From assembly GCA_963666275.2 (NCBI GenBank), contig CAXXOA010000001.1:2336001-2400000 (forward strand): a stretch of 64,000 nucleotides of DNA, given 5' to 3'. The position numbers and the translations under genes were made by a program. The notes beneath the pieces were generated by a model. It did no database searches, was not told the DNA's origin, and saw only the letters and a program-made list of their open reading frames with translations. Of the stretch, positions 1-8,299 are shown in pieces; position 1 is the stretch's first letter, and the number at the start of each line of letters is the position of its first letter. The DNA comes from Oceanispirochaeta sp. Its GTDB lineage: Bacteria; Spirochaetota; Spirochaetia; DSM-2461.

Positions 1-2323
1 AGATACCATTGGTTGTCTGGGTAAGATCATTTGTTCCGAAACTGAAGAAATCCGCATATCGGGCGATCTTATCTGCCTGCAGGGCAGCACCGGGCAGTTC
101 AATCATGGTTCCCACGCGATAGGGAATCGGTTCGGAAACGTCAAACTTCTGCCTTACAGCCAGTTCCACATCCCGGATTCCCAGAATCTCCGTTCCTTCG
201 ATCCTTTTACCGAAGCGCATAGATTTCACTTCCCGTTCGGACATGACTACAGGGAGCATTATCTCGGGCGAGGTGACAATACCGTCTTCTTTCAGAAGCT
301 TGTAGGCCGCTTCAAAAATAGACCGTACCTGCATGGCATAGATCTCGGGAGTGGAAATACCGACCCTGATACCTCTATGCCCCAGCATGGGATTCACTTC
401 TCCCATCATATCACAGCGCAGACGGATATCCGCATCACTCACATCGGGATGATCCTTTTTATAGAACTCTATAAAATCATTCATACTGTCCCTGGTATGA
501 GGCAGAAACTCATGAAGAGGAGCATCAAGGAGACGGATTGTCACCGGATGGCCTTCCATAATTTTAAAGAGATTATAGAAGTCGGAAGTCTGCATGGCTC
601 CCAGTTTCTCAAGGATCTTAAAACGGTCCTCTTTCTCTTCCGCAATGATCATAGAACGGAAAAGCGGGATCCTCTCTTCATCGAAGAACATATGCTCAGT
701 CCGGCACAGACCTATCCCATCAGCTTTGAACAATTTGGCAAGCTGAGCGTCTTTCGGCTGATCCGCATTGGCATGAACATCAAAATCCCCGATGAACTTC
801 TGAATGATTTCCAGAAACTCAAGAATACCGCTCTCTTCAATGACAGGTTTGATAAGTTTGACCTGATCAAAATAGATTGTCGGTTTATCATAGGAGGGAA
901 CATCAAGACTGATATAGTCTCCCTCTTTGATCACATGATCCCCTACCTTCACGGAGGATTTAAGGAATTTGATATCCGGGTTGACCATGGCGACCTTTCC
1001 CAGACTTCTGGCGACAACCGGTGCATGGGAAGCATAGCCCCCATCCATGGTCAGTACACCCTGGGAGACCTCAATGGCTTTGACATCTTCCGCATAGGTG
1101 GAGGGCATACAGAGGATAAAATTGGAATCCAGTCCCCTCTGTGTTGCTATACGATGCTCCTGCATCAGTTTTTCAGTAGAAAAATAGACTTTTCCCACAG
1201 CGGCGCCAACAGATCCGGAAATTCCCCCGTAATAGGAAGGCATCTTCTCTGCAGAAGCCTTATCAATCACAGGATGGAGTATTTCCGCCAGTCTTCCCGG
1301 CTGAATGGCGTTCACCACATATTCATCACTGACAACTTTTTTCTGATTCAGATCCAGAAGAGTCCTTATATGGGCCTGGGTGGATTTATTGTCCGCCGCA
1401 TTCTGGTCAATAACCCAGAGTCGTCCGTCTTCTACGGTGAATTTGATGGACCGGATCTCTTTATAGTGGGTTTCAAGCTGATTGGCTATGGATCTCAGTT
1501 CTTCAAAATACTCATTTTTTATTTCAGTGACGGGATTTCCCTCGGACTGGGTTGCATCGAAAGAGTTGATAAAAAACTTTCCGGAAATGACATTTTCCCC
1601 GTCAACAATATTGCGGGTATAGTAACTTCCGAAAAAACTCTCTTTTCCGTAATTTCCAAAGGTCATTGCCTGAATCAGAAGAGCTGAATCATTCAGGGTT
1701 TCGCTTTCTTTGAGGTACCTTGTATAGAGAGACTGGACGTAACTCAGCTGCGCCCAGGCATCGGAAAAGATTTCCTGAGGGTATACCCCTTCTACTTCGA
1801 CAAGTACATCTTTGGTCTTTTTTGCGGTTTTACACTTTTCCAGAGAATCCGCAAGCTTCTGAAGGACCTTCCTTCTGTTCCCATCCGATTCAATCTCCAG
1901 GTCAAGAGTAATGATTCTCCGAAGCATATTCCTGTATTCGTGGTAGGCAAATTCCTCACCGACGAATTTGGCAAAACCATCTATGGTATTTTTGCAAAGT
2001 CCAATGTTATGAAGACTTGAAAAGGTATCAATCAAATTCAGCTGAGGACTGAGGACACATTTGACAAGAAGAGGATTTTCGCTGTCTCCGTACTGTTTTT
2101 CCACCACATTTCCCATGGACTCGATAGATTCATGGATTTTGCTGCTGAAAGAACCGGGATCTGCCAGTTCAGCCAGTAGAGAGTCGTTGGAAAGGACGTA
2201 TCCCGGTAGAATGGGAATACCCAGTCCTGCAAGATGCATCAGCCTCCGGCCTCTGTATCCCAGCACATCGAGAACATCTTTATCTTCGGTATAAGCTGTA
2301 CTGCTGAATGAATAAATATCCAT
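1..2323 (-). CDS. PPDK-family PEP-utilising protein with degenerate N-terminal ATP-grasp domain (C-terminus runs off the window start)
   Basis: Not in the ORF track; translated by hand from ATG 2323 (AAGGA upstream). Contains GGYASHAPVVAR (His433), GIGLCRTEHMFF, TIRLLDAPLHEF, NPMLGHRG, GTMIELP, FSFGTNDLTQ. Confidence 0.9.
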   Translation of the reverse strand, partial: MDIYSFSSTAYTEDKDVLDVLGYRGRRLMHLAGLGIPILPGYVLSNDSLLAELADPGSFSSKIHESIESMGNVVEKQYGDSENPLLVKCVLSPQLNLIDTFSSLHNIGLCKNTIDGFAKFVGEEFAYHEYRNMLRRIITLDLEIESDGNRRKVLQKLADSLEKCKTAKKTKDVLVEVEGVYPQEIFSDAWAQLSYVQSLYTRYLKESETLNDSALLIQAMTFGNYGKESFFGSYYTRNIVDGENVISGKFFINSFDATQSEGNPVTEIKNEYFEELRSIANQLETHYKEIRSIKFTVEDGRLWVIDQNAADNKSTQAHIRTLLDLNQKKVVSDEYVVNAIQPGRLAEILHPVIDKASAEKMPSYYGGISGSVGAAVGKVYFSTEKLMQEHRIATQRGLDSNFILCMPSTYAEDVKAIEVSQGVLTMDGGYASHAPVVARSLGKVAMVNPDIKFLKSSVKVGDHVIKEGDYISLDVPSYDKPTIYFDQVKLIKPVIEESGILEFLEIIQKFIGDFDVHANADQPKDAQLAKLFKADGIGLCRTEHMFFDEERIPLFRSMIIAEEKEDRFKILEKLGAMQTSDFYNLFKIMEGHPVTIRLLDAPLHEFLPHTRDSMNDFIEFYKKDHPDVSDADIRLRCDMMGEVNPMLGHRGIRVGISTPEIYAMQVRSIFEAAYKLLKEDGIVTSPEIMLPVVMSEREVKSMRFGKRIEGTEILGIRDVELAVRQKFDVSEPIPYRVGTMIELPGAALQADKIARYADFFSFGTNDLTQTTNGI

Positions 2324-2354: not shown

Positions 2355-3305
2355 CTAGAACAGATCAAGAACGCTGTTCACTGCTCCTCTTAAAAATACT
2401 TCAAACCGGGGACTGGCCCCTTCAAAAAGGTACTTTCTCAATTTGGAAACATCTTTGATATCATCACCGGCAACACTGAACATAATGGGATTTCCGTGTT
2501 TTACCTTTCCCCATTTGAAAAGGGCATTGATATCATTGATTCTCTCTCCATCGTACCATATCAGAACATCCAGTCCGGGATGCTTGTTTTTATAACTTTC
2601 AATAATTTTTTTCCAGGCTTCCACATTTCCATTGTGGAACAGCTCATTGGTAACCAGAACCGCATATTTGGTAGACACTTTTCGTGATCCTCCGGCAGCA
2701 GGACTAGCAGGAGCAGCCGTTGTTTCGGGTTCGGGAGAGGCTGCAGGCTGAGCAGTTTCTTCAGGTTTCACATCAGGATCAACATAGGCTTTTTTAGTCC
2801 TGATCTTCTTTCCTTCCAGCAGGGAAAATATGTCATTGCAGGCCGAATTCTCAGTTTCCTGATCATCCTCTCTGGCGCTTTTTACAAAACATACCATCAG
2901 TTCATCCTGATAGAGGGGAAGAAGGGCATCCCATTGCTCGCTCTTTGTCGGATTGAGAACAGAAAGATCGCCGTTGGAATCATAAAAAGCAAGAACAATA
3001 TCGAGGAGTGTCCATTCTGAAACAGTTTCAACAAGCTTCTCAACAGACTCTATAGACTTGGTAAGATTCACCGAACGGCAGGTATATCCGAACTTATCGA
3101 CAAGTAAAAGATTGAGTACAGGCCTCAGCTGCTGAGGAGAGATTTCTCTCTCCTCAATAGCTTCAGTCAGTACATCAGCCAGATTAACCCCGTCCTCCAC
3201 ATCACCTGAGAAGGACAGAGCTTTTTTAAAATGCCCCAGAGCAAGGTTAAAACCTGCTCTGGTGGATAACAAATTGAATTTATTATCACTGATGTTTTGA
3301 GTCAT
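2355..3305 (-). CDS. Conserved spirochaete hypothetical protein with a C-terminal HPr-like domain after a Pro/Ala linker
   Basis: 316 aa ORF starting 1 nt after the cfpA stop; residues ~210-300 resemble the HPr pattern (VTNELFH...DVLIWYDGERIN...VKHGNPIMFSVAGDD). Confidence 0.75.
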   Translation of the reverse strand: MTQNISDNKFNLLSTRAGFNLALGHFKKALSFSGDVEDGVNLADVLTEAIEEREISPQQLRPVLNLLLVDKFGYTCRSVNLTKSIESVEKLVETVSEWTLLDIVLAFYDSNGDLSVLNPTKSEQWDALLPLYQDELMVCFVKSAREDDQETENSACNDIFSLLEGKKIRTKKAYVDPDVKPEETAQPAASPEPETTAAPASPAAGGSRKVSTKYAVLVTNELFHNGNVEAWKKIIESYKNKHPGLDVLIWYDGERINDINALFKWGKVKHGNPIMFSVAGDDIKDVSKLRKYLFEGASPRFEVFLRGAVNSVLDLF

Positions 3306-3306
3306 A

Positions 3307-5262
3307 TCAGATCTCGCTTAATTCATCCAGATTGACTTTCTTCCTTTTGGAAGGAGTTACGTCAGCTTGCCCCTTAGGTGCATCATTTTTGCTTTTGATG
3401 GCGGCAGCATACTCAGAAGAGGAAGCTTCAGCCATTGGCTCAGCAGCAAAGCTCTGGTTAATATCCTCACGAACAGTGGACCGTCTCCGTTTGAAGGAAG
3501 CGAATGCCGCATCCTGGAATCCTTTGGAAACACCATTGAGGAACTCATTCATGACGTTAGCCATGCTGTTCAGTGTGAATTTTTTCCGTTTGATACTGCA
3601 GATATCCATATCCAGAACCAGACCGGGCTGAACATGGTAGGGGTTGATCATATAATCAAACTCATTGAACTGGGATTCCAGGAAGTCGATTCTCTGATCC
3701 ATAACCACTCTGGTTTTGGGATTTTCATAACCGAAAGTTGTAGAAACTTTTTCCCTTGTCCGACGCAGCATTTTCAGCATCAGTTCTTTTTCATACAGAT
3801 AGGTCTGATTGAGACGTTCAACATCGGTGTCTTCCACTCTCAGTTTCATGATCTCATTCCAGTTTTTCTCCTGTTCTTCATAGATAGGATCACCGGAAAC
3901 TTCCTTGATCTGTTTTTTGATCTGGGGAGCAACTTTTTTGGCCAGGTCATCAAAGTCATTGATTCCTCTGGCTTTTTTGCCCTGGTAGACAACTTCTGCT
4001 ACATCCCAGATGTGAAGAACTTCCCTATGGAATTCATCCATCTGATCATCATAGTTCTTTCTCAGTTTTTCCAACTGATCATTATCATAGAACTTCAGCA
4101 TGATTTTGTAGCGTTCATCAGGCAGGTTGAGAGGATCTGTATCTTCGTACTCCCTGACAATCAGCTCACGGGCATTTTTAAGGTTTTCAATATACTGATA
4201 TCCCATTTTACTGGTATCCAGAATTGAAGTCAGATTGTTGACTGCAGTATTGAAACCTCTGTTTCTGATGTTTTCATTGTCAATAATCTTTTTGATATTC
4301 TCACGGATATTCTGGGGATCGAATTCATCCTTTGAAATTTCCGCTCTCAGACCTTCGATTTTTTCTACCAGATTTTTTGCCATGAAAGCATATCTTCTGG
4401 AGTTTTCATCTTCTTTCTCGTCATCGGTAAAGTCGGGAACTTTTTTGATCCGTTCGAACATCAGTTCGGTATCGGTTAGTTCTTCTTTTCCTTCATCAAC
4501 AAGCTGATCCTGAAGGACTTCAATTTCCTTATCAATCATGTCCATAACTGTTTTGGAAATCTGATCTTTGATGATGTACTCAACAGAAGCCTGATACTGG
4601 AAGATCGGGCTTATAAGTTCAGATTCCAGGATATTTATGGAAAGTTTAACATCAGTTACAGTTTTGGGCTTGTAGGCATTGTCTTTGAATGCACACTTGA
4701 TGATGGAGTAGGCATTTTCACCACGTATAAATGCACCAACATCAGTTTTCTGACGCAGCAGAGCATTTGTCTCATTTTCAAGGTCATTCAAACCACGCTG
4801 TACATGTCCCTGCAGATGTCCGTACATATTAACGATGGATTTTTCAATCTCACCTGTATTGAACTTGTCTGCACCACCGATCTGATCGAGCATTTCCGCA
4901 ATTTCTTTCGGGGTATACCGGGCAAGGGATTTCTGTTCTTCCTTGTCGATGAAACCACGAATTTTTTTAACCATTTCATCTTCAGTGGTAACAACGTACC
5001 TGTTGAACATGTTCTGGTAGTTCTGGTTGTAGTAATTGTAGAGCTTCTGTTTCAGACCACCCATAACGTCGAGCTGTTTAAGCACTTCAGGGGGCAGTTT
5101 TGTCTGCAGCTCATTTAGAATCTTATCTGATTCTTCCTGTACTACACGTTCGAATTCTTCATTCTGAGAACGTCCTTCCTGAGCAAGACTGTTTCTTGAA
5201 CCGACTGCTGAAGGTTTAGTTGGATGAAATACATTAGGACTTCTGGGAAGATCGCCAGCCAT
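3307..5262 (-). CDS. cfpA: Cytoplasmic filament protein A
   Basis: 651 aa, coiled-coil rich; N-terminus [25 protein letters not shown] matches the treponemal CfpA N-terminus as I recall it; GAGGAG RBS. Confidence 0.9.
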
Positions 5263-5328: not shown

Positions 5329-5356
5329 ATTATAGTACATCGTTTCTCTTTTCCAA
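5329..5356 (-). promoter_or_regulatory. Putative sigma70 promoter of the cfpA operon
   Basis: TTGGAA-16 nt-TATAAT on the minus strand in an AT-rich intergenic region; a second TATAAT lies at 5322-5327. Confidence 0.5.
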
Positions 5357-5452: not shown

Positions 5453-8299
5453 TCAATCGATCAGGGAAAGGATCTTTCTCCGCAGCTGTTCACTCATGGA
5501 ACCTTCGGCGAGGGTTTCCATTCGGCCGGAAACGGAGCTCTTTTCTGCAGGAGTGACTGCCCTGTCCAGTTCTCTTTTCAGTTCCTCCAGTGTCTCCAGC
5601 CTCTGTTCCATATCTCGTCTTATCAGACGGGAGGCTATGAACCAGATAGTATCCCCCCGGACAACTTCATATTCACTTCCGTCGGGAAGTTCAAGAAGAT
5701 TCCCGGCCCAGATCCAGTCAGGGTTCTTCCCTTCGAAGACCCTGTAATCCAGATCCCGATAGCCGTTGCGCACCGCAATGTCATTGGAAACAAGATGGAT
5801 ATCCACAAGGGTTATCTGCAGATCATCCATTTTCAGATAGGCCCGGGCCTCCTCTACTGTAACAGGACGCCGTTCGGTTTCAACCACTGGAGGAAGAGAT
5901 GCGGGCTCCTCGGAAGCACTCTCTTCAGATGCGCTCATACTGGTACCGGAGTCACTCTCACCAGGAGCCCCTTCGGTTTCAGACTGAACAGGAAAAGCTG
6001 CGCTTTGATCTTCTGAGGCTTCATTCGCATCAGCCGTTTCAACTCGGGAATCTCCGGAAACCTCGCCGTCGTTCTGACTGACGGCAGCTGAAACACCACC
6101 GTCTTCTCCCGCCATTCCGGGTGTGACCTCCCCGGAACTTCCGGTGCCGTCAATGGCTCCGGATTCACTGACTGTTTCGGCCCCGGAGGCCTTAGTCCCG
6201 GTAGATTCAGCTTCCATCTGCCGGGAGGAATTTCCTTCACTTCCTGACGATTCTGCGGCTCCGTTTTCCTTATCTGACTGGTCTGAATCTGTATTTTCTC
6301 CGGCCGAACCGGCCCCTGAGGATTGAGCAGAACTGTTTTCACCTGAAGATGCCACAGCAGGATTTTCCTGCCGGCCAGCTGCCATGGCTCTTTCACCTTC
6401 AGAATTCGTTATTCTGAAGAAAGCAAAAGTACCGCTTCCCAGCAGGAGGAGGACAAGGAGAATTGCCAGGGGAAGGAGAGATCTCCGTTTTTTTGCCGGA
6501 GCTTTTCTTCCACCGCTTCCCAGAGAGCCTGATTTCCCCAAAGGTCCTGATGAGGAGGGAGAGGACAGGGAGCCCTTCCCTGAAGGAGGAGTCGTCTTAT
6601 TCACCGCTCCCTGATTTGCTGCAGCTGATGCAGCCGTTTTTACCGGTTCGGATTGTCTTTCCGGGCGCCGGGAGTCTGATAGGGAAGCTGCCGCTGAAAG
6701 GGAACTTCCTGTCAGTGAATTGAGCAGACTTTCCAGACGGGCTCTTTCACTCTGATAGAATTTCAGGTCGGGCATCTCAAGATCAGACATACCCTCGGAA
6801 ATTTCTTCCGCCTTTCTCAGATTATAGGGGTTCAGCTTGTGAGTAGATATCCGGTAGAGAACAAAAGGATCTCTGTAACCATGATAAAGGTCTCCCAGAA
6901 CCGGGAGGTAGACGGAGGGAAAATCCCAGGAGGACAGGATTTCCACAAGGGATTCCACGGCACTGCTGTAATCCCCTTTTGCCAATTTCAGAAGCTCCAC
7001 CGCATTGCTGAGGAACAGGTATTCCAGCCCCGGAGTGGATGGTTTGAGGCGGGAAAAAGCTGAGAGGTCAATCTCAGCATCGCTGCCGCTGAGGGCCATC
7101 TCTATTTTTGTTTCCAGAGCGTAGAATGGCTCCCATCGGTCCCGGCTGTCCCAGGCTTCAAGATAGGAGTGCAGAAAACCCAGATACTTGGATGCCATAC
7201 CGACAAGGTCCGGGAGCTTTTTTTCAAGAAGGAGCGGGTATCCCCTGAGAGGAGTAATTTCAATATCCTCCCCTTCTTTGCTCCGCCATACAAGAGTTGT
7301 TCTGTCGGAACTGACATGCCATCCGGATTTTCGGGAAACCTGGGGATCAGATGATCCGAAAGGAATGAAGAGCGCATTGTCCTCACCGAACTGAACCTTG
7401 AGGATCTCCCCTTCAATGGAGGATTTCATATTTCCCTGGGTCCAGTCGGAACCGGACTTCAGAAGCACAGGTTTTACAGGAGAGGAATTTCCAGAACCTC
7501 CATCGGGAAAAAGTCTGACAAGGTGGTCCGGAATTTCCGGGCTGGTTGTCAGAATGGTCAGATCCTTTTTCCGCAAAGCCCTTCTTTTTATATGCTGTAC
7601 AAGGGATTCCCGATGATCATAGCTCATCTGTTCCTGAGGAAGATGGGTAAATACAGAACAGACTTCATCGGGGTCTATCCCCAGAGACGCCAGTTCGGCA
7701 AAAAAATGATTTTCAAGATCCAGAGCCATCCACTCTTTATTGTAAAGATAGAATTTCCCCTTGCCGCTGACAAAAAATCCCGGCTTGTTCAGTTCTTCCC
7801 GGGAGTAGCGCAGAGGGTTATTAACAAGGAGTTTTTTGATTTCATCGCATCGCTGCAGACAGTGTCTGTCCGCGACTTCCCGCTTCTGAAGATCAAAAAG
7901 GAGGTTACCGTCAAAATTGAGATGGATATTCCCGTTGTTGTAAAAATACAGTGTATGCCTGTTACCGCCATCTTTGACCTGTCTGTAATCGGTCAGATCC
8001 CGGGCCGGAAGATTGAGGCTTTGAAAGAATTTGCGGAAATGTTCAATAACGTCCACATCCCCCAGGTAGGATAGTTTGTGACGCCTGGCATATTCGACTT
8101 CCTGGAATGGATTCCCTGTAAAACTGGAAGTTATTATGATGCGTGAGGTAATTTTATGAAGAGCTTCCGGAATATCCGGAATGTTTCCGATTCTCAGGAA
8201 GGGATTTTCATCATCCCGATCGCTGCCGAGATAGATAACATAACACTCCTGGCCCAGTTGAAAAACTCTCTGACTGATATCTCTGCTGCCTGGAATCAT
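5453..8299 (-). CDS. Large bitopic membrane protein: cytoplasmic N-domain, one TM helix, acidic S/G/E low-complexity linker, C-terminal LysM-like motif
   Basis: 948 aa; KKRR followed by LLPLAILLVLLLLGSGTFAFF; C-terminal NPDWIWAGNLLELP and YEVVRGDTIWFIA. Confidence 0.75.
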   Translation of the reverse strand: MIPGSRDISQRVFQLGQECYVIYLGSDRDDENPFLRIGNIPDIPEALHKITSRIIITSSFTGNPFQEVEYARRHKLSYLGDVDVIEHFRKFFQSLNLPARDLTDYRQVKDGGNRHTLYFYNNGNIHLNFDGNLLFDLQKREVADRHCLQRCDEIKKLLVNNPLRYSREELNKPGFFVSGKGKFYLYNKEWMALDLENHFFAELASLGIDPDEVCSVFTHLPQEQMSYDHRESLVQHIKRRALRKKDLTILTTSPEIPDHLVRLFPDGGSGNSSPVKPVLLKSGSDWTQGNMKSSIEGEILKVQFGEDNALFIPFGSSDPQVSRKSGWHVSSDRTTLVWRSKEGEDIEITPLRGYPLLLEKKLPDLVGMASKYLGFLHSYLEAWDSRDRWEPFYALETKIEMALSGSDAEIDLSAFSRLKPSTPGLEYLFLSNAVELLKLAKGDYSSAVESLVEILSSWDFPSVYLPVLGDLYHGYRDPFVLYRISTHKLNPYNLRKAEEISEGMSDLEMPDLKFYQSERARLESLLNSLTGSSLSAAASLSDSRRPERQSEPVKTAASAAANQGAVNKTTPPSGKGSLSSPSSSGPLGKSGSLGSGGRKAPAKKRRSLLPLAILLVLLLLGSGTFAFFRITNSEGERAMAAGRQENPAVASSGENSSAQSSGAGSAGENTDSDQSDKENGAAESSGSEGNSSRQMEAESTGTKASGAETVSESGAIDGTGSSGEVTPGMAGEDGGVSAAVSQNDGEVSGDSRVETADANEASEDQSAAFPVQSETEGAPGESDSGTSMSASEESASEEPASLPPVVETERRPVTVEEARAYLKMDDLQITLVDIHLVSNDIAVRNGYRDLDYRVFEGKNPDWIWAGNLLELPDGSEYEVVRGDTIWFIASRLIRRDMEQRLETLEELKRELDRAVTPAEKSSVSGRMETLAEGSMSEQLRRKILSLID

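Follow-up and report, generated by a model that had tools for sequence, protein, structure and literature searches.

The PPDK-like gene at the left edge of the window (the whole stretch of 64,000 nucleotides of Oceanispirochaeta sp. DNA that was analyzed) encodes a member of a distinct PPDK paralog clade of Spirochaetota, and the residue pattern of that clade indicates that its change of function is real and clade-wide. Since the ATP residues are lost, the PEP half is kept and the gene is linked with cfpA and with a gene for a predicted phosphate-carrier-like protein, a signaling relay appears probable. On balance, and with modest confidence, we favor the view that a PPDK paralog has turned into an Enzyme-I-like PEP phosphotransferase, which would bind a dedicated partner, pass phosphate to it and serve the CfpA filament.

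A PPDK-like protein with a remodeled nucleotide-binding domain

The gene, the orthologue of TP0746, occupies positions 1..2323 of the minus strand, and its reading frame, which the sequence-only reading of this DNA had called open, continues uninterrupted for 290 nt beyond the left window edge to give a protein of 870 aa (genome coordinates G000:C1:2335711-2338323). The region 1381..2323 discussed in that reading corresponds to the first 314 codons of this minus-strand ORF, which starts at window position 2323. Residues 17-867 align with PPDK 1DIK (E 9e-142), a full-length three-domain homology. With TIGR01828, the 774-aa part of the protein lying within the window scored 528 bits, the value of a truncated protein, against a cut-off of 843, and the full-length proteins of five clade members reached 587-677 bits versus 1291-1398 bits for canonical PPDKs. 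In a quick tree built from the His and PEP regions, 27 clade members fell on one side of a branch of length 1.12 (SH-aLRT 100) and 21 canonical enzymes on the other. Clade members at seven loci (L018, L021, L023, L037, L041, L043 and L051) have ~965 aa and a ~95-residue insertion in the N-terminal domain.

Residues were numbered after C. symbiosum, as read off an alignment to PDB PPDK sequences, and we take K22, R92, the G101 loop, D321, E323, Q335 and R337 to be the residues that serve ATP, AMP, Pi and Mg. The ATP-grasp (nucleotide-binding) domain, residues 1-345 (1289..2323, minus strand), is remodeled according to the residue table, the dN/dS values and the alignment, and Pfam PPDK_N matches the source protein with only 19.6 bits (cut-off 27). 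In this protein K22 is replaced by R24, R92 by V90, D321 by S292, E323 by K294 and R337 by A309, and the G101 loop is altered. All ten altered and scaffold motifs quoted in the sequence-only reading were found on the minus strand, among them GYRG at residue 22 (window 2260-2249), PLLVKCVLS at 84, SFDATQSEG at 254, RSIKFT at 291 and WVIDQN at 303 for the altered sites, and QAMTFGN at 218, TRN at 236 and FTVEDG at 295 for the scaffold; SMPGMMDT, reported there as lost, is indeed absent from the source protein. The PEP motifs described as intact were likewise all located in the translated ORF (CRTEHM at residue 540, TIRLLD at 595, GHRG at 648, MIE at 740 and GTNDL at 763). They lie in the intact PEP/pyruvate domain, residue 501 onward (1..823, minus strand; PF02896), whose site residues are R541, R597, E742 and GTND 763-766, the C831 equivalent (Cys827) being present outside the window. 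The domain layout and the swivel mechanism of PPDK are confirmed by PMC5371819 and PMC4844700. In the PPDK-like protein, the swivel-domain motif GGYASHA (1022..1042, minus strand; PF00391 and clade residue table) carries the phosphocarrier His433, equivalent to H455, and the equivalent of T453 is Ala. The intact His433, the replacement of T453 by Ala/Ser and the partner genes, which hint at the new function, had no place in the earlier reading. Escape from the PPDK regulatory kinase explains little of the T453 change, since PF03618 was found in none of the five genomes searched.

The residue table set 131 clade members against 21 canonical spirochaete PPDKs, in all of which K22, R92, T253, E279, D280, D321, E323, Q335, R337, G101 and R135 are kept. 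The clade members comprise six unlinked copies and 125 of the 128 non-redundant paired loci, three proteins of <800 aa having been left out. Only Q335 survives in the clade from the nucleotide and Mg set listed above (as Q307, in 130/131); the sequence-only reading had scored both Q335 and R337 as lost, which is right for R337 but wrong for Q335, where a one-residue insertion shifts the register. The loss of R92 stated there extends to the whole clade, with R in 0/131 and V/A/L/I in 131/131, and that of the Mg ligands to all or nearly all of it, D321 being D in 7/131 and the E323 column holding K or R in 121/131 and E in none. K22 is replaced, as had been claimed, but conservatively, by Arg, in 130/131. 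G101 and R135 are lost in 131/131. On the other half of the protein, the His455 equivalent is His in 130/131, with one X, and the equivalents of R561, R617, E745, N768, D769 and C831 are kept in 131/131. Columns invariant in the 21 canonical enzymes are retained by the clade very unevenly (17/103 in the nucleotide domain, 15/31 in the His region and 68/83 in the PEP domain), which argues that the pattern is neither chance nor alignment noise.

The per-domain dN/dS comparison that had been suggested gave a median of 0.051 in the nucleotide domain against 0.052 in the PEP domain (28 disjoint pairs, those with usable dS among 48 disjoint close pairs; the boundary of the His domain failed in 2 of the 28), and all domains evolve under purifying selection. 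With the same substitutions fixed in 131 members, these equal values bear out the proposal that the protein changed its function instead of decaying. The clade has conserved pocket residues of its own (R24, K88, H105, R291, K/R294 and Q307), so that the nucleotide pocket, as far as its geometry can be judged from sequence register, appears to be rebuilt rather than emptied, and it probably still binds something anionic.

The TP_0747-family neighbor and the proposed relay

The adjoining gene (2355..3305, minus strand) encodes a 316-aa TP_0747-family protein (PF27497, TP_0747_N), for which the AlphaFold model shows a helical N-terminus, a middle domain, a low-confidence Pro/Ala linker and a C-terminal domain. 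Both domains are predicted to adopt the HPr fold. The model of the middle domain, residues 74-166 (2808..3086, minus strand), aligned in VIA-align with E. coli HPr at Z 9.9 and rmsd 2.0 over 80 residues, the top 5 rows all being HPr/NPr, and its column profile shows that the position of His15 in HPr lacks a conserved His here. For the C-terminal domain, residues 206-316 (2358..2690, minus strand; model pLDDT 92.5), which was folded alone, HPr filled the top 4 VIA rows with Z 7.0-6.5, below the tool's caution line of 8 (rmsd 2.4-2.7, 78-81 aligned), and the next non-HPr row had Z 5.9. Its His224 (codon 2636-2634; residue 19 of the model) belongs to the motif NELFHNGNVEAW and marks the beginning of helix 1, modeled as residues 20-36 (alignment range 6..95 versus HPr 1..84). 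This is presumably also the position of His15 in HPr, and His224 is a candidate phospho-acceptor. The HARP motif of HPr reads HNGN in the neighbor (FHNGN versus GxHARP), whereas G13, H15, A16, R17 and P18 are invariant in 30 HPr controls.

Sequence-based searches did not link the neighbor to HPr. Neither PF00381 nor any other Pfam family matched its predicted HPr-fold region, and profile comparisons with HPr and between its two domains were not significant (E 0.074, 0.015 and 0.091, probabilities <=3%). The C-domain profile, searched against PDB sequences, gave 7 weak unrelated rows and no HPr. Foldseek gave no match at E 0.001 with the neighbor domains, the ESM Atlas returned only the neighbor's own family and unnamed clusters, and a Pfam scan of 19 distant homologues revealed no bridge to HPr. 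In clusters P0253, P0257 and P0252, short stand-alone homologues of the C-domain without the His occur in SAR324 and Deltaproteobacteria bins, and Ca. Lambdaproteobacteria have 233-262-aa forms with it. A complex prediction for residues 1-497 of the PPDK-like protein with the 316-aa neighbor (128-row alignments) scored 0.23 and 0.16 against a mark of 0.32, which is indecisive either way.

In the mechanism that we favor, PEP would very probably phosphorylate His433 with release of pyruvate, the ATP/AMP half-reaction presumably being gone. The swivel domain would then, with only somewhat better than even likelihood, bring the phosphate to the remodeled N-terminal domain, whose conserved basic residues would receive the C-domain of the neighbor, and His224 would be phosphorylated. 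The alternative that survives best, in itself unlikely, is that of a PEP/pyruvate sensor and scaffold, in which phosphorylated His433 would transfer nothing onward, the position of the swivel domain would switch binding to the neighbor or to CfpA, and the HPr-like domains would be interaction modules only. The His-less middle domain and the missing HARP motif fit such a role, HPr-fold proteins often work by binding, as PDB titles indicate, and His224 is missing in some full-length relatives (P0228, P0238, P0245 and P0273) as well as in the short stand-alone homologues. Against it, His224 is kept in 61/61 genome loci from the whole-protein search (and in 97/108 aligned representatives of the profile search), at the helix start where it would be expected and within the most constrained part of the module, the C-domain having a dN/dS of 0.019. 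Among 251 genomes, none held a His-less neighbor closer than ~50% in which a matching change of the PPDK-like protein could be sought.

PEP enzymes in the source genome and in treponemes

The sequence-only reading had raised the question of a separate canonical ppdK or ptsI, and the source genome has both: a canonical 888-aa PPDK with all motifs and PtsI, besides three further Enzyme-I-like proteins, an HPr adjoining a gene judged by eye to be HprK-like from its motifs, and two pyruvate kinases, so that it has no need of the PPDK-like gene as a PPDK. The three extra Enzyme-I-like proteins carry N-terminal additions (G000:C2:1563586-1565835, C2:160550-162826 and C1:884847-887396), one of them appearing by eye to be GGDEF-fused. 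The same genome encodes a PPDK-derived protein of 781 aa that has the His and PEP domains and a C-terminal extension but lacks the ATP-grasp domain (G000:C2:2208702-2211125, minus strand), and ~15 kb away a stand-alone 330-aa PPDK_N ORF (G000:C2:2193040-2193936, plus strand), which possibly form a split PPDK-like system.

Treponemes present another situation. At locus L006, genome G102 carries a clade member identical to PPDK_TREPA, and the member at L002 has a name in T. denticola. In G102 (99% complete) we found no pyruvate kinase, no PPDK_N domain and no canonical PPDK, only two PEP-utilizer domains; it does encode GTP-PEP carboxykinase and oxaloacetate decarboxylase beta. TP0746 is treated as a glycolytic, ATP-forming PPDK in the relevant parts of PMC10013896 and PMC8525777, and the current RefSeq name of the T. 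pallidum/T. denticola orthologue is 'putative PEP-binding protein'. In the portions of its main text considered, PMC12097511, which presents a metabolic model of T. pallidum, does not name a PEP-to-pyruvate step.

These data bear on a second alternative, ranked next and also unlikely, in which the protein would still act in metabolism, its second site having been rebuilt, and would pass the PEP phosphate to a small acceptor (e.g. a nucleotide, or Pi with formation of PPi), K88, R291 and K/R294 taking the place of R92 and the Mg ligands; we include here residual PPDK activity, which the present annotation presupposes. The residues conserved in the rebuilt pocket speak for it, and the basic ones could bind a small phosphate compound; the enzyme content of G102 implies a need for some PEP-to-pyruvate route, and ppdK is among the most expressed T. 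pallidum genes in the data cited from PMC8525777. Such a role would have to be reconciled with the loss of R92, G101, R135 and E323 throughout the clade and of D321 in all but seven members, residues that every canonical control retains. Moreover, the carboxykinase and decarboxylase of G102 would provide a bypass, a canonical PPDK is kept beside the clade gene in the source genome and in G015, G110 and G146, and the distribution of the clade follows cfpA.

Linkage and co-occurrence with cfpA

The PPDK-like gene is the last of a same-strand cluster in the order cfpA, TP_0747-family gene and PPDK-like gene, with gaps of 1 and 31 nt. The first gene, cfpA (3307..5262, minus strand), encodes the cytoplasmic filament protein (NF040882, 1058.9 bits, cut-off 500). 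A sigma-70-like promoter motif match lies directly upstream of it (5329..5356, minus strand) and a terminator-like hairpin 17 nt past the PPDK-like stop, outside the window; these matches are suggestive by their positions alone, the counts of promoter and terminator sites across the region showing no excess over shuffles. Also directly upstream of cfpA is a gene for a 948-aa protein (window 5453-8299, minus strand) that matches no family above cut-off and contains an extended stretch of low complexity; an 888-aa ORF before cfpA at locus L231 resembles it by eye.

Among 251 genomes of the phylum, the TP_0747-family neighbor was found in 91, cfpA in 90 and the PPDK-like clade in 89 (told from canonical PPDK by the gap between E 4e-38 and 1e-31), the cfpA and clade genomes being nested within the same 91 neighbor-bearing genomes, unlinked cases included; these counts run across related genomes, which cannot be taken as independent. 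Exceptions are G048, where the contig runs out, and two genomes, G078 and G105, in which the adjacent PPDK-like copy is divergent. That of G105 (L231:7371-9489) is very divergent, its sequence showing an X and a break in frame directly after the CRTE motif, and is possibly an assembly error or a decayed gene. In six genomes of family f44 the three genes are all retained but lie on separate contigs, and genome G005 has three full-length cfpA matches (C97, C69 and C102) versus a single neighbor gene. Where at least 1 kb of flank was available, the PPDK-like gene adjoins the neighbor in 194/198 loci and cfpA does so in 183/196, a few contigs being counted in two sets; 60 of the 90 neighbor loci in other genomes were taken, chosen for contig room, and further loci were picked by motif patterns, some of them repeated. 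In T. denticola, TDE0842-0844 are repressed together according to Table 5 of PMC3914990.

The least secure step of the favored mechanism is that the phosphorylation state of the neighbor, set by the PEP/pyruvate ratio, might act through the other domains of that protein to control how the CfpA filament is assembled, anchored or positioned, the link to the filament being suggested by gene context and co-regulation alone. Strict co-occurrence with cfpA would also suit a catalytically silent structural part of the filament ribbon, a bridge or an anchor, and bridging and anchoring filament components are reported in a title cited in PMC3398590; this reading is nevertheless very improbable, as such a part would have no need of the six invariant PEP-site residues or of the nearly invariant phosphocarrier His. 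Finally, a decaying duplicate of ppdK, to which one could relate the possibly broken copy in G105 and the weaker conservation of the nucleotide domain among clade members (42%, as opposed to 64% among canonical PPDKs), can be dismissed with near certainty, being refuted by the dN/dS of 0.05, with an open frame and the same substitutions across many families.

Significance for filament-bearing spirochaetes

The evidence leaves room for a bolder, tentative proposal, to which we give slightly less than even weight: spirochaetes with filaments, among them the syphilis and periodontal treponemes, may have a third type of PEP phosphorelay. Made of a PPDK and a tandem HPr-fold protein, it would link an intermediate-filament-like cytoskeleton, which division requires, to the PEP/pyruvate ratio. 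Loss of the CfpA filament in T. denticola leads to filamentous cells, condensed chromosomes and lost infectivity, as stated in the parts of PMC3398590 cited here. The relay would offer testable candidates for control of this filament, namely two proteins and two histidines. The clade-wide residue loss also challenges the PPDK label of TP0746. If the proposal is true, T. pallidum would lack both pyruvate kinase and a working PPDK, and PEP would be routed through PEP carboxykinase and oxaloacetate decarboxylase; given that neither a pyruvate kinase nor a canonical PPDK was found in G102, the final glycolytic step would have to be assigned anew. In the literature consulted we found no description of the degenerate site or of the HPr-like neighbor, and the original cfpA papers may already describe the genes downstream.

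Comparison with known systems

The clade resembles PPDK (EC 2.7.9.1; C. symbiosum 1DIK/1KBL; TIGR01828) in its three-domain homology, swivel His and PEP/pyruvate site, and differs from it in the replaced nucleotide and Mg residues, in scores below the TIGR01828 cut-off and in forming a separate clade on a long branch. With the Enzyme I/HPr relay of the PTS, regulatory PTS branches included, it would share the proposed chemistry, in which phosphate passes from PEP via one His onto that of an HPr-fold protein, and the PEP and His domains are homologous. However, a remodeled PPDK ATP-grasp replaces the helical HPr-binding domain of Enzyme I, for which no Pfam match was found in the window part of the protein, the N-terminus being of the PPDK type, and that same part scored 86.6 bits with TIGR01417, far from the cut-off of 341.7. 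The partner differs too, with predicted tandem HPr folds, no HARP motif and linkage to a cytoskeletal gene, canonical PtsI and HPr being encoded by separate genes. Despite failing the sequence tests for PPDK, Enzyme I and HPr, the PPDK-like protein and its neighbor plausibly work like an Enzyme I/HPr pair. If this is true, an Enzyme-I-like relay would have arisen again, from PPDK, as the mirror image of VadK (Rv1127c) of M. tuberculosis, which is presented in the sections cited from PMC13400623 as a PPDK-derived regulatory His phosphotransfer protein: VadK keeps the ATP side without the PEP domain, whereas the clade keeps the PEP side without the ATP chemistry. T. pallidum TP0746 (PPDK_TREPA, AAC65714.1) and T. 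denticola TDE0844 are orthologues from which nothing essential differs, as they belong to the same clade and have the same substitutions and the same gene order.
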